Positions 46,102 to 50,284 of a stretch of 64,000 nt of DNA are shown here, one piece after another. The stretch comes from Escherichia phage EP_H11. Where the stretch lies: the sequence record OP688485. The stretch is one strand, 5' to 3'. The notes below the pieces were generated by a model. The model was not told the origin of the DNA. It saw only the letters and a list, made by a program, of their open reading frames with translations, and searched no databases. The position numbers were made by a program, and so were the translations under genes. How positions within the stretch are numbered: the stretch's first letter is position 1; every line of letters begins with the position of its first letter.

Positions 46102-46124
46102 GATGGTGCTCTATGAGTACCATC
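46102..46124 (+). promoter_or_regulatory. class C hairpin containing GATGGTGCTCTATG
   Basis: gatggtgctc-tat-gagtaccatc (one G-U pair); the 14-mer gatggtgctctatg recurs at 50260. Confidence 0.35.
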
Positions 46125-46156
46125 TATTAATATTGCTGTTAACCTTAGGAGATATT

Positions 46157-46489
46157 ATGAGTAACATTATTGCAACTGCAGAACACGTACGTCTTGCTCG
46201 TGAACATAAACAGCAGGTAGATAAAGAGAATGCCCTGAAGTTCCTGGACGAGCACTGGAACGATGGTTTCGACGCTATCAATAAGATGCTTATCACCCAC
46301 TTCAGTGCGGATGTTTATCTTACCCAGCTGGACGAAGCATTTAAGGAAGACATAGCACTCCTGAATAAGGATGGCAAGACTACCAACACTACGGTGCTAT
46401 CTAATCTATACCGTGCTCTGGGATTTAAGGTAGGCTACTCAATGTCCACTAACTATCGCGAAGAGAGAATCTTTATCCAGCTGGAGTAA
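46157..46489 (+). CDS. hypothetical protein
   Basis: Trimmed to the ATG at 46157 behind TAGGAG; the track start lies inside a hairpin. Confidence 0.45.
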   Translation: MSNIIATAEHVRLAREHKQQVDKENALKFLDEHWNDGFDAINKMLITHFSADVYLTQLDEAFKEDIALLNKDGKTTNTTVLSNLYRALGFKVGYSMSTNYREERIFIQLE

Positions 46490-46491
46490 TT

Positions 46492-46701
46492 ATGATCATA
46501 GCTATCGGGGTGCTGATCGGAGTAGTTATGATACTCCTGTTCAGACTAGATTTGTTAAAAGAGCGCTTATCTAAACTAAACTCGGATCTTAATTCTGTTA
46601 AGAGTTTGCTGGATAAGTGTGATGATTTACGTAAAACTAAAGGAACTAACTATGAAAAAGATTCTTGCAGTTGCTCTTCTTGCCGTAAGCGGAATGGCTA
46701 A
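46492..46701 (+). CDS. hypothetical small membrane protein
   Basis: N-terminal hydrophobic IIAIGVLIGVVMILLF; overlaps the next gene by about 50 nt. Confidence 0.3.
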   Translation: MIIAIGVLIGVVMILLFRLDLLKERLSKLNSDLNSVKSLLDKCDDLRKTKGTNYEKDSCSCSSCRKRNG

Positions 46702-46870
46702 CGCATCAGTTAATATCGAATGCTTCGGTCCGGATGGTAGAGTCCTGTATAGTGAGCCTAATGCACAACGCTACGTAATCGAGACTGCAGCAACCACCAT
46801 AATCGATAGTAGTGGTAATCCAGTAGTGATCACTGCTGCGGCACCATGCATCATTACCCCGAATAAGTAG
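46652..46870 (+). CDS. putative secreted protein
   Basis: Signal peptide MKKILAVALLAVSGMANA; AAGGA RBS. Confidence 0.45.
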   Translation: MKKILAVALLAVSGMANASVNIECFGPDGRVLYSEPNAQRYVIETAATTIIDSSGNPVVITAAAPCIITPNK

Positions 46871-46878
46871 GAGCTACC

Positions 46879-47058
46879 GTGGGTCGCAAACTTATAGAAG
46901 TAACCGTAGTCGTGGAGGTACCGGACACAGCATCTGATTCCGATATTAAGGATTTCGTAGATGTGGAGTTCGGGGAATGCGGAGGTATGAGACTGGGTAA
47001 TCCATGCCTAGACGACTACGATATTGAATCAGCAACATGGAAACATATTAAGGAGTAA
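46879..47058 (+). CDS. hypothetical small protein (59 aa, GTG start)
   Basis: AGGAG 5 nt upstream of GTG; acidic protein; below track cutoff. Confidence 0.3.
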   Translation: MGRKLIEVTVVVEVPDTASDSDIKDFVDVEFGECGGMRLGNPCLDDYDIESATWKHIKE

Positions 47059-47060
47059 CG

Positions 47061-47348
47061 ATGCAGATCTTAGATGAGAACATCGTGTCTGAAGCTCAAA
47101 AATTGATCGAATCTGGACGAATCACGCCTTACATTAACGAGGTATGGAAAGGATGGACCGACTGGGATACAGTAGCTAAGCGAACCGGATTCGACATCCG
47201 CACTGATAAAGTTACTGATCTTGAGTCAGCTAAGAAGTTCGCGAAATGGTGTCATCATCTATTGGAAACCCTTCCGGATAAGCCATGGATTCGTCATGGG
47301 CCATTCTTCCAGATCTGCGACTTCGCCGAATATCACTGCTGGGAGTAA
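47061..47348 (+). CDS. hypothetical protein
   Basis: AAGGAG RBS. Confidence 0.5.
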   Translation: MQILDENIVSEAQKLIESGRITPYINEVWKGWTDWDTVAKRTGFDIRTDKVTDLESAKKFAKWCHHLLETLPDKPWIRHGPFFQICDFAEYHCWE

Positions 47349-47448
47349 TTATGCCAGATGGTGCTGGATTTCTTATAATGATCGGATTCTTCCTTGGATT
47401 ACTCTTCTGCTCATTCTGTGTAGCTATGGGATGGGAGATTCATCCGTT

Positions 47449-47646
47449 ATGGTAGATAAGATTCCGATTCATATGACTACTGGTATGCATTTCGAATATA
47501 ACGGAGAGATGGTCTGTATGGTGCGTGGTAGTCTGGTTATGGACGAACACACCGCTACATGTTCCGTAGCTAACGACGACGTGATATTCGAGAATGTGGA
47601 CGCAACAACTATGGTGGAACCTAGACCAGGAACACTGTACGGTTAG
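47449..47646 (+). CDS. hypothetical protein
   Basis: Start uncertain (ATG at 47431 or 47449); overlaps an alternative 34-codon ORF at 47351-47455. Confidence 0.3.
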   Translation: MVDKIPIHMTTGMHFEYNGEMVCMVRGSLVMDEHTATCSVANDDVIFENVDATTMVEPRPGTLYG

Positions 47647-48303: not shown

Positions 48304-48305
48304 TT

Positions 48306-48845
48306 ATGAACAATAATCGTAATGTAGTGGAAGAGACTCTGGAGTTAATCAACAATCTCTTCCGCAGTAAGTTAAGTGGTGATCTCAATGCTATGGAGTT
48401 CACCATGAGTCGTAAAGAAGTAGCAGACATCCTCAATCATGTTAAAATGTCGATCGCGAATAACTGTGTAGCTATTCCTGATGGTCTTCATCCGGATACT
48501 CGTGAGCTGGTTCTGGATTTCGCTGGGAAGATGGCTAAGAAGCTACATAAATCCCAGATTAAGTACGGATTCACCAACGGATGGCGTCATCCTAACTGGG
48601 ATACGGCTAAGGGTAATGATCAGTTCGAAGATCCTACCCAGTGCATCATCGCATTTAGCCACCATATCGATAAGGGTGATCCTGTTGATGTGGCTAATTA
48701 TTGTGCCTTTATGGACTGGCATGGGTGGCAGACTAAATACCTAAATACATGCCAGACTACTAAAGATAAAAAGGAAGTTAGAATAGCATCTGAAGCTGGG
48801 TACGGAACCGATTATGTTGGTCGCATAGGAGACATGCCTCAGTGA
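48306..48845 (+). CDS. hypothetical protein
   Basis: ORF only. Confidence 0.5.
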   Translation: MNNNRNVVEETLELINNLFRSKLSGDLNAMEFTMSRKEVADILNHVKMSIANNCVAIPDGLHPDTRELVLDFAGKMAKKLHKSQIKYGFTNGWRHPNWDTAKGNDQFEDPTQCIIAFSHHIDKGDPVDVANYCAFMDWHGWQTKYLNTCQTTKDKKEVRIASEAGYGTDYVGRIGDMPQ

Positions 48846-49069
48846 ATAAAATAATGATGATGGGTATACTCGAAAATATTGTAACCCTTATCTGCATGAC
48901 TGTTCTAGTATTGGGCCTTTATTATATGGGAGCATCATGGTGGTCAGCTATACCTGGGTTATTGGTATTCAATCTTAGTTCTGTTAAGTATAAGGAAACT
49001 AAGTCTGTTGGTTACCAAGAGAATACCACACCAACTGGGGAGATTGCTGCTCCTCCTAAGGACAGATAA
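48842..49069 (+). CDS. hypothetical membrane protein
   Basis: Two hydrophobic segments. Confidence 0.45.
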   Translation: MNKIMMMGILENIVTLICMTVLVLGLYYMGASWWSAIPGLLVFNLSSVKYKETKSVGYQENTTPTGEIAAPPKDR

Positions 49070-49407
49070 TGGAACAATTCCGCATTGAATTAAAGGTATG
49101 GAGCAGCCTTATCGGGGAACGCCCTCCGGAGGGAGACCCAAGATGGGAGACTGCCTACTGCATCTTACTGGATAATAACGAAGAGCACTGTACTTTCGAT
49201 AAAGAAAAGGCTACTTTGGTTACTTATGAGCGTCTGGATGAGTTAAATCTATTCGGTTTAGCTACAAGATGCCGTAATTTCCTCCGTATGGCAGACTGGG
49301 AACTGGGTTCTGTTAACATAATTAAGCTAATTGACCCTGAGTTTATCCACATAAATATAACGATAGATAATGACCCTGAGGAGTTCGGATGCCATACTAC
49401 CATGTAG
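49069..49407 (+). CDS. hypothetical protein
   Basis: ORF with coupled start. Confidence 0.5.
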   Translation: MEQFRIELKVWSSLIGERPPEGDPRWETAYCILLDNNEEHCTFDKEKATLVTYERLDELNLFGLATRCRNFLRMADWELGSVNIIKLIDPEFIHINITIDNDPEEFGCHTTM

Positions 49408-49955
49408 TTAAATCTGGAGATACGATGTCTGGTATTGCAGAATTGTATCGTTGTCGATTAGAGGATGTGGCTAAGGCTAACAAAGCTACTCACCCTAATC
49501 CTGGCCTTATTTACCCAGGTGATCGTCTGGTAATTCCAGACTCCAGATCTTCTGGTATTTATCTGACTATCAAGAATGATATGCATGTTTCTGCACTTCA
49601 TTACGATACGGCTGTAGAGCAGTTAGAGAAGCAGATAACCGATTTACTACAGACCAAAGCTCGGGTAATGAAGGATCATATGAATCGTCTGAATAATATT
49701 CAGTCTAGTCATTACCATACTCATTACCTAACTAAGGTAACTACTAAGCCAGATGGTTACCACGATACTAAACTGGATGTTCGCCAGTATTGCCAGCATT
49801 GTGGTGCTGAGCTCAATGGCATAGATCGTAAATTCTCTGATATGATACATATTGGAGTAATGAACGAAACTGGCCAGCCGATCACTAATAAGAATGGCGA
49901 AGGCCATAATGAGGATACCATATATCCTGGTATGAACTACAATAAGACATTTTAA
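49389..49955 (+). CDS. LysM domain-containing protein
   Basis: N-terminal LysM: YHVVKSGDTMSGIAELY...LIYPGDRLVIP. Confidence 0.65.
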   Translation: MPYYHVVKSGDTMSGIAELYRCRLEDVAKANKATHPNPGLIYPGDRLVIPDSRSSGIYLTIKNDMHVSALHYDTAVEQLEKQITDLLQTKARVMKDHMNRLNNIQSSHYHTHYLTKVTTKPDGYHDTKLDVRQYCQHCGAELNGIDRKFSDMIHIGVMNETGQPITNKNGEGHNEDTIYPGMNYNKTF

Positions 49956-49965
49956 GGAGATAACT

Positions 49966-50199
49966 GTGGATCAAGAATTAATGGGTGGGGAAGAGGATGT
50001 ATTGTACAGACTCTTCTGGTTCGGACCAGCTACTGATGGAGATCTTCCGTCTAAGTCAGGTGCGGCAAGTCTGGTAGATAAGGGACTAGCTACATGGTTC
50101 CAAGGTAATGGTACTTGCCCTAAGATTTACGGAGACTGCAATATGTGTATGCTTACATCCTCAGGTTTGGATGTTGCCAAAGCTAAATATATTAAATAA
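49966..50199 (+). CDS. hypothetical protein
   Basis: ORF ending immediately before class A motif A13. Confidence 0.45.
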   Translation: MDQELMGGEEDVLYRLFWFGPATDGDLPSKSGAASLVDKGLATWFQGNGTCPKIYGDCNMCMLTSSGLDVAKAKYIK

Positions 50200-50234
50200 C
50201 CGCTCTTTCTAAGGGTCGAAAGGCTGTTAAACTG
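50200..50234 (+). promoter_or_regulatory. class A motif A13
   Basis: ccgctctttctaagggtcgaaaggctgttaaactg; followed by a class C hairpin. Confidence 0.5.
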
Positions 50235-50248
50235 TAGAGGTTATTCCT

Positions 50249-50272
50249 ATAGAGCATCTGATGGTGCTCTAT
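50249..50272 (+). promoter_or_regulatory. class C hairpin containing GATGGTGCTCTATG
   Basis: atagagca-tctgatgg-tgctctat followed by gtgaa; lies between A13 and the gene at 50310. Confidence 0.35.
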
Positions 50273-50284
50273 GTGAATAGTCTT

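Follow-up and report, generated by a model that had tools for sequence, protein, structure and literature searches.

Four intercistronic hairpins of Escherichia phage EP_H11 are predicted to be RNase III signals of the T7 type

Four RNA hairpins with a common two-tier architecture, designated sites 1–4, are located between genes in a 64,000-nt stretch of the genome of Escherichia phage EP_H11 (sequence record OP688485; the whole stretch is hereafter called the window). Judged from sequence and predicted folding, the four elements are probably intercistronic signals at which the host RNase III processes the mRNA, like the early RNase III sites in phage T7. They provide the first testable map of RNA-processing signals in the lineage of EP_H11 and its relative IME392, with four exact cleavage positions predicted, and a phage with its own transcription machinery apparently still depends on a host RNase for the shaping of its mRNA. 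If confirmed, the sites would be usable as compact insulator or processing parts in polycistronic constructs in E. coli.

EP_H11 is a myovirus of E. coli with a genome of ~111–116 kb. The window DNA is ~92–94% identical to Escherichia phage vB_EcoM_IME392 (MH719082.1, 116 kb; IME392), the sole close record in the phage collection, and distant relatives (contigs with L numbers) were drawn from Logan assemblies via the protein of the NAD-dependent ligase gene (38110–40053, + strand) and the protein encoded at 48306. These barely characterised coliphages combine a YerA41-like DNA polymerase with a multisubunit RNA polymerase of their own, of which split β and β′ subunits are encoded by the phage. 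The + strand carries nearly all window genes up to ~59.6 kb. A literature search found no paper on transcription or transcription signals of EP_H11 or IME392.

Results

Architecture of the four hairpins

A preliminary description of this DNA had reported hairpins at 46102, 50249, 47655, 40314 and 22521, and all five are present. At the first four positions, the actual unit is larger than described: a 48–49-nt two-tier sense-strand RNA hairpin of 19–21 bp. Each consists of a lower stem of 8–10 bp, an internal loop of 1×1 to 3×4 nucleotides and an upper stem of 10–11 bp, with folding z-scores of −3.3 to −5.2. The four sites are as follows (minimum free energy, MFE, in kcal/mol).

Site 1, 40302–40350 (+): lower stem CAGUGAUA/UAUCAUUG, internal loop, upper stem UAUAGGACAUC-UUCG-GGUGUCCUAUG; spans the stop codon of the acyl-carrier-protein (ACP)-like gene 40053–40307 and ends at the Shine-Dalgarno sequence of gene 40362–40595; MFE −22.6 vs −12.5 for the antisense strand, 17 Watson-Crick and 3 G·U pairs, z = −5.15.
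Site 2, 46090–46137 (+): lower stem AGUAGUAUUA/UAAUAUUGCU, loops UC and UAU, upper stem GAUGGUGCUC-UAU-GAGUACCAUC; contains the first copy of a shared 14-mer, spans the stop codon of gene 45849–46094 and precedes the ribosome-binding site of gene 46157–46489; MFE −22.4 vs −11.5 antisense, z = −5.18.
Site 3, 47642–47689 (+): lower stem GUUAGCAU/AUGUUAAC, upper stem UAUAGGGUAU-UUCG-GUGCCCUAUG; spans the stop codon 47644–47646, upstream of the ribosome-binding site of gene 47706–47894; MFE −20.4 vs −10.0 antisense.
Site 4, 50237–50284 (+): lower stem GAGGUUAUUC/GAAUAGUCUU, 1×1 mismatch, upper stem UAUAGAGCAUC-UGAU-GGUGCUCUAUG; contains the second copy of the 14-mer, between the class-B motif at 50200–50235 and the ribosome-binding site of gene 50310–50669; MFE −23.1 vs −14.5 antisense, 5 G·U pairs, z = −4.16.

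The helices contain zero mismatches, and 15 of the 80 pairs are G·U (3–5 per site). Across the four sites, the folding energy is −20.4 to −23.1 kcal/mol for the sense strand and only −10.0 to −14.5 for the antisense strand. Every site is located between a stop codon (at site 4, a promoter-like motif) and the next Shine-Dalgarno sequence, which directly follows or overlaps the 3′ arm of the lower stem, and the downstream ribosome-binding site is partly paired in the folds. The hairpin tails (GUCGGUAUC, UAUUAAUAU, GUGAAAUGU and GUGAAUAGU) lack the U-tract of an intrinsic terminator. The absence of a U-tract and a position just upstream of ribosome-binding sites had already been pointed out, and both hold for the first four described hairpins, which end 9–13 nt before the Shine-Dalgarno sequence. 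Rfam gives no match in the window at the gathering score and, at E ≤ 1 within 40200–51500, only a chance-level match to TarB (E 0.13); a tRNA scan of the sequence returned nothing relevant.

A further hairpin at 7155–7204 (+) follows a stop codon and precedes a class-B motif. It has ~20 bp in multiple tiers, and its top, AUAGCCAUC/GGUGGCUAG, recalls the upper stem of the C1 copies defined below; neither of the covariance models described below matches it.

The structure, rather than the shared 14-mer, is conserved

The family had been defined by the 14-mer GATGGTGCTCTATG. A pattern search confirms exact copies at 46102–46115 and 50260–50273, with no other copy in the window even at ≤2 mismatches. 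About 8 exact direct repeats of ≥14 nt are expected by chance per simulated 64-kb window, and two matches of the pattern search were reached in 10 of 100 shuffles. The register also differs, the 14-mer comprising the 5′ arm and loop at 46102 and the loop and 3′ arm at 50260, and it is lost in the orthologues of L012, L090 and L091: at the first site it becomes GGTGACACTTTCCG in L012, and at the second AATGGTG... in L090 and CGTGGTG... in L091. Because the 14-mer changes register and disappears in relatives, it is incidental and the structure is the conserved part. Four of the five described hairpins do group together, but the 14-mer is neither significant nor the feature that defines them.

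The fifth hairpin does not belong to the family. This GATGGTG/CACCATC hairpin at 22521–22540 (+), ~30 nt after a class-B motif, is part of a branched fold with a z of only −2.0 and is matched by neither covariance model; IME392 carries a different weak hairpin in its place.

Pairing of the sense-strand RNA is under selection

All four elements are unchanged in IME392, and site 1 is identical in IME392 and L088. Among the orthologues of site 2 (window, L088 and L012), 20 of 20 pairs are kept, three of them doubly compensated and none broken, and several U-A pairs are replaced by U·G. The hairpin of site 3 and the entire spacer around it hardly change among L088, L089, L090 and L091, in spite of only 64–86% identity in a nearby protein. 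In L090 and L091, site 4 has an unchanged upper stem and a variable loop, and part of its lower stem is formed by new pairs of different sequence.

Three of the hairpins, at 40314, 47655 and 50249 (sites 1, 3 and 4), are copies of one upper stem, which we call C1, and share cUAUAG-NNN-AU(C)-loop-(G)GU-N′N′N′-CUAUGUG. Their upper-stem sequence is kept among the copies and their lower stems are different. In the C1 alignment, 100% of the cells are paired and two pairs show double changes; the covariation is confined to the middle pairs (columns 10–12). Because departures take the form of G·U pairs and compensatory changes, pairing of the sense-strand RNA is clearly under selection at the four elements.

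Covariance models relate the four sites to those of T7

Two covariance models were built, one solely from seven T7 sites (R0.3, R0.5, R1, R1.1, R1.3, R4.7 and R18.5; model R2, hereafter the T7 model) and one solely from the three C1 hairpins (model R1, hereafter the C1 model). When both strands of the window (128 kb) were searched with the T7 model and filters off, the top four matches were exactly the four elements: site 1 with 28 bits (E 1.5e-4), site 4 with 24 bits (E 0.0017), site 2 with 21.8 bits (E 0.007) and site 3 with 17.1 bits. The next match has 14 bits. The same four rank highest across the complete genome of IME392. Among unrelated contigs (644 kb, searched with default filters), the best score is 18.5 bits and no match reaches 21.8 bits. 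Because the four best matches in the window coincide with the four elements and no match of ≥21.8 bits occurs in the unrelated contigs, the family of four is far beyond chance. In the first 50 kb of YerA41, the T7 model finds no convincing T7-type site (best score 17 bits).

The fifth match of the T7 model in the window is a possible weaker site:

Possible fifth site, 56527–56581 (+): intergenic two-tier hairpin of 21 bp without a U-tract, −20.2 kcal/mol; 14 bits, E 0.8.

The reverse comparison agrees. The C1 model scores sites 1, 3 and 4 at 44.2, 47 and 52 bits, respectively (44–52 bits on the + strand vs ≤23 bits on the − strand). A covariation-aware structure search across the genome had been proposed as a check; with this model, it yields exactly three copies in the window, and the same number in the whole genome of IME392. 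On the T7 genome with filters off, the two best matches of the C1 model are 860–896 (E 0.005) and 3108–3143 (E 0.014), and 5855–5892 and 13861–13897 are also listed. By their coordinates, these four correspond to R0.3, R1, R1.1 and R4.7.

The seven T7 sites fold as a lower stem, an internal loop and an upper stem, like the four sites of EP_H11. The hairpins of both groups have two tiers with a small internal loop between them, a 10–11-bp upper stem and an apical loop of 3–5 nt, as well as an A/U-rich base closing in G-C, a variable middle, and A-U and U·G (and C-G) pairs below the loop. A 3′ tail of the form ...CUxUAUG... and an intercistronic position just upstream of a ribosome-binding site are also common to both. 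T7 R0.3 has the core GGGUAU...GUGCCC in common with site 3, and T7 R1 (CAGGUCAUC/GGUGGCCUG) differs from site 1 at few positions. In contrast, the consensus is CUAUAG.../...CUAUGUG here and CUCAAGG.../...CCUUUAUGAU in T7. The sites of EP_H11 also belong to an unrelated ~111–116-kb myovirus with a multisubunit RNA polymerase, and cleavage is known for the T7 sites but only predicted here. Transfer of the hairpins together with T7 genes was considered and rejected, as no T7-group homologues of the genes after sites 1 and 4 were found.

Comparison with the published determinants of E. coli RNase III

An RNase III signal is an RNA helix of about two turns (~20 bp), usually with an internal loop that restricts cutting to one strand. 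All four sites present such an interrupted helix, with 19–21 bp in two tiers. A regular-expression scan for the RNase III signature motif (a motif scan only, no profile search) found none encoded by the phage, and the host RNase III is for this reason the candidate enzyme.

The target of the E. coli enzyme comprises a helix of ~11 bp from the scissile bond to the apical loop, with a proximal, a middle and a distal box (PMC1540722; Pertzev & Nicholson 2006). Counting the terminal U·G, the upper stems of the four sites have 10–11 bp (10 at site 3). The proximal box runs from pb1 (G-C) through pb2 (A-U or U-A) and pb3 (A-U) to pb4 (A-U or U-A) and down to the scissile bond (PMC1540722); the C1 copies have G-C, A-U, U-A and A-U, which is canonical at three of the four positions. 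At site 2, pb1 is U-A, pb3 is G-C and pb4 is C/U, the last as in natural R1.1. The middle box is base-paired but free in sequence, and the distal box is a stringent U·G (db2) beside U-A (db1) at a fixed spacing to the proximal box (PMC1540722). The sole covarying pairs of the C1 upper stem, columns 10–12, fall on the middle box, and the invariant pairs fall on the proximal and distal boxes. The U·G, formed by U40322·G40330, U47663·G47670 and U50257·G50265, is invariant in every C1 copy and orthologue and is located 5 bp above the pb1 G-C, as in T7 R1.1 (5855–5892); site 2 has no U·G in the distal-box orientation.

In the mechanism that we propose, each element would fold within the polycistronic mRNA to a helix of ~20 bp with a small internal loop, and RNase III would bind the 10–11-bp upper stem. 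The conserved base of A-U, U-A, A-U and G-C would serve as the proximal box, the 2–3 freely covarying pairs as the middle box, and the conserved A-U and U·G near the loop as the distal box. A single cut would be made on the 3′ side of the internal loop, ~2 nt past the upper stem. The upstream RNA would then retain a 3′-terminal hairpin that should slow 3′ exonucleases, and the downstream RNA would begin 22–35 nt ahead of the start codon, with its ribosome-binding site freed from the lower stem. The predicted scissile bonds are as follows.

Site 1, 40339/40340 (+): CCUAUGU|CGG, from alignment by the T7 model to T7 R1.1 (...CCUUUAU|GAU) and the numbering of uR1.1, a minimal substrate (PMC1540722).
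Site 2, 46127/46128 (+): CCAUCUAU|UAA, from alignment by the T7 model.
Site 3, 47678/47679 (+): CCUAUGU|GAA, from alignments by both models.
Site 4, 50274/50275 (+): CUAUGU|GAA, from alignments by both models.

RNase III-type processing was one of the options raised in the preliminary description, and the T7-like architecture, the reciprocal model matches and the partial fit of the invariant C1 pairs to the boxes support it computationally.

Several points weigh against this assignment. The E-values of the models are rough, and the T7 model gives site 3 no more than 17 bits (E 0.12). The site coordinates used to choose the training sequences of that model (Dunn & Studier 1983) are supported by folds and the uR1.1 numbering only. 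The folds predicted for T7 place them in the 3′ internal loops, and they agree with the uR1.1 numbering when it is applied to 5855–5892; the features shown for T7 records V01146 and NC_001604 include no RNase III sites, and a literature search gave no coordinates. Only four sites occur, all inside 10 kb. Among the determinants, pb3 of C1 is inverted (U-A vs the optimal A-U), and db1 is not U-A but C-G, a pair also present in natural T7 R0.3 and R1. The pb1 U-A and pb3 G-C changes, as found in site 2, weaken binding in the minimal substrate (PMC1540722), and regular helices can bind RNase III without being cleaved (PMC1540722).

The same hairpin type in other phages

The IMG/VR collection was searched for the C1 upper stem with a pattern in which any base was allowed at the three middle pairs and complementarity was not required. 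At least 120 stretches matched, and 22 of the 34 distinct sequences among the matches listed are perfect hairpins with covarying middles. The main group among the matches listed is located in intergenic spacers of lambdoid pL operons, in some cases just upstream of cIII-like genes. In the SP6-like phage UAB_Phi78, a hairpin at 2545–2570 lies in the early region between gp10 and gp11 and has a lower stem like that of T7 R0.3. The UAB_Phi78 and lambdoid hairpins share with the sites of EP_H11 the upper-stem consensus CUAUAG...CUAUGUG, the two-tier folds and an intergenic position in early operons of enterobacterial phages, whereas their flanks and lower stems are unrelated to the window sites. 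They are not annotated, and no paper that describes them as a family was found. No C1-type hairpin occurs in phage lambda between 27 and 36 kb, and the T7 model does not match the lambdoid example at E ≤ 1.

In a comparison among lambdoid phages (query L103, 8380–8620), homology to mEpX1, HK106 and Dewey starts exactly at the 3′ edge of a C1-type hairpin, which hints that such hairpins may stand at a mosaic junction in lambdoid phages. The wider occurrence fits a signal tuned to an enterobacterial host factor, and the near-identity of the site consensus to those of T7, SP6-like and lambdoid phages would reflect either convergence on the rules of E. coli RNase III or exchange of a small RNA module.

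Alternative explanations

Of the alternatives, the one with most in its favor is that the hairpins are structural or protein-binding elements that RNase III does not cleave: barriers to 3′ exonucleases, translational operators that mask the ribosome-binding site, or sites bound by a phage protein or, without a cut, by RNase III. Selection on the structure is clear, the lower stem reaches the Shine-Dalgarno sequence with its 3′ arm, and the upper stem is the part kept among copies while the lower stems vary; the non-canonical determinants and the uncleaved binding of regular helices mentioned above point the same way. However, conservation falls on the positions that define a site of cleavage and not just any helix, and the nearest matches are sites that are cleaved in T7. 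A protein that reads the loop is disfavored because the loop sequences vary freely. We consider that the hairpins are unlikely to be uncleaved elements of this kind.

Another reading makes the CUAUAG...CUAUGUG hairpin a discrete, portable RNA cassette common to three unrelated groups of enterobacterial phages, namely SP6-like podoviruses, lambdoid phages and this myovirus with a multisubunit RNA polymerase. It would spread horizontally, would mark mosaic junctions and would have its tightly conserved upper stem read by a factor other than, or additional to, RNase III. We regard this extension as rather doubtful.

A role as terminators or attenuators without a U-tract, acting on the multisubunit RNA polymerase of the phage or on the host polymerase, is very unlikely. 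The hairpins are stable and stand at gene ends, and the termination signals of the phage polymerase are not known. Against this, the helix is two-tiered and lacks the U-tract, which about ten canonical terminators (hairpin plus U-tract) elsewhere in the genome possess. Site 4 lies ~20 nt past a promoter-like motif, directly ahead of the gene to be silenced, and the T7 sites that the four elements resemble are not terminators.

The suggestion that the hairpins form a third promoter class fares worse. The phage encodes split β/β′ subunits of the phiKZ type, and the late promoters of phiKZ require TATG, the G of which is +1 (PMC4666361); C1 ends in CUAUGUG 24–37 nt ahead of the start codon, so that a phiKZ-like non-virion RNA polymerase could start at the G of the conserved TATG. 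Although the TATG stands at a plausible distance from the start codon, the copy number, the distribution and the covariation at the RNA level are unlike those of a promoter. Only three C1 copies (four T7-type sites) occur in the 116-kb IME392 genome and none in its structural module. Site 2 has no TATG at the equivalent place in L012, the G·U-only departures and compensatory changes indicate selection on RNA pairing, and site 4 is already preceded by a class-B motif, of which IME392 has 25 copies. We consider a promoter function highly improbable. A T7-like single-subunit promoter (CTATAGG) was rejected as well, since nothing upstream of CTATAG is conserved in the three copies.

Least plausible of all is that a dimeric regulator binds the elements as palindromes of double-stranded DNA, or that the similarity is due to chance. 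The near-palindromic sequences and a 14-mer within chance expectation might suggest this, but wherever the symmetry is broken, the change is G·U-compatible on the sense strand alone, both arms change together in the orthologues, and chance cannot account for the agreement between the four elements and the top four matches of the T7 model.

Neighboring genes and other signals

The small ACP-like gene at 40053–40307 (+), directly 3′ of the ligase gene, is assigned to phrog_5934, and the identical product of L088 matches PF00550; the gene is missing from L012, a relative with 74% identity. The ligase protein has no match in IMG/VR, a joint query of five small flanking proteins gave no match, and an exact look-up of the protein encoded after site 4 showed that it is not on record.

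The class-B motif, CCGCTCTTT-N10-AAAGGCTGTTAAA-N-TGT, has 16 copies on the + strand of the window (for example at 3033, 6382, 22480, 38067, 45024, 50219 and 55406), ~25–45 nt ahead of start codons. All 25 copies of IME392 share the strand of its early and middle genes, and the motif is also present in L013, a relative with 43% identity. A phage RNA polymerase probably uses it as a promoter. As an exact pattern, it has only single chance matches in IMG/VR and in JGI metagenomes.

A class-A motif occurs on the + strand at 2258, 25016, 28838, 33053 and 36551 and consists of an AT-rich palindrome (TTATTTTTCAAATAA...), TAAAGCCCGTTCTTTTGGGTGG and a G+C-rich hairpin with a copy-specific stem; it represents a second promoter-like class. 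The structural module (61–104 kb in IME392; 59.7–64 kb of the window, − strand) contains no class-A, class-B or C1 element.

At 9557–9625, 11296–11327, 18856–18902 and 32903–32944 (+), the class-B motif is immediately followed by, or itself pairs into, a terminator-like hairpin with a U-tract. This odd order of promoter and then terminator suggests that the terminators act on only one polymerase.

Finally, a strongly structured stretch of 529 nt without genes at 50833–51361 (+) is conserved in L089 and L090 and matches neither Rfam nor tRNA. The RNAalifold prediction has 145 pairs, of which 22 show compensatory double changes, together with long invariant unpaired blocks, which makes this stretch a candidate for a large structured non-coding RNA of no recognised class.

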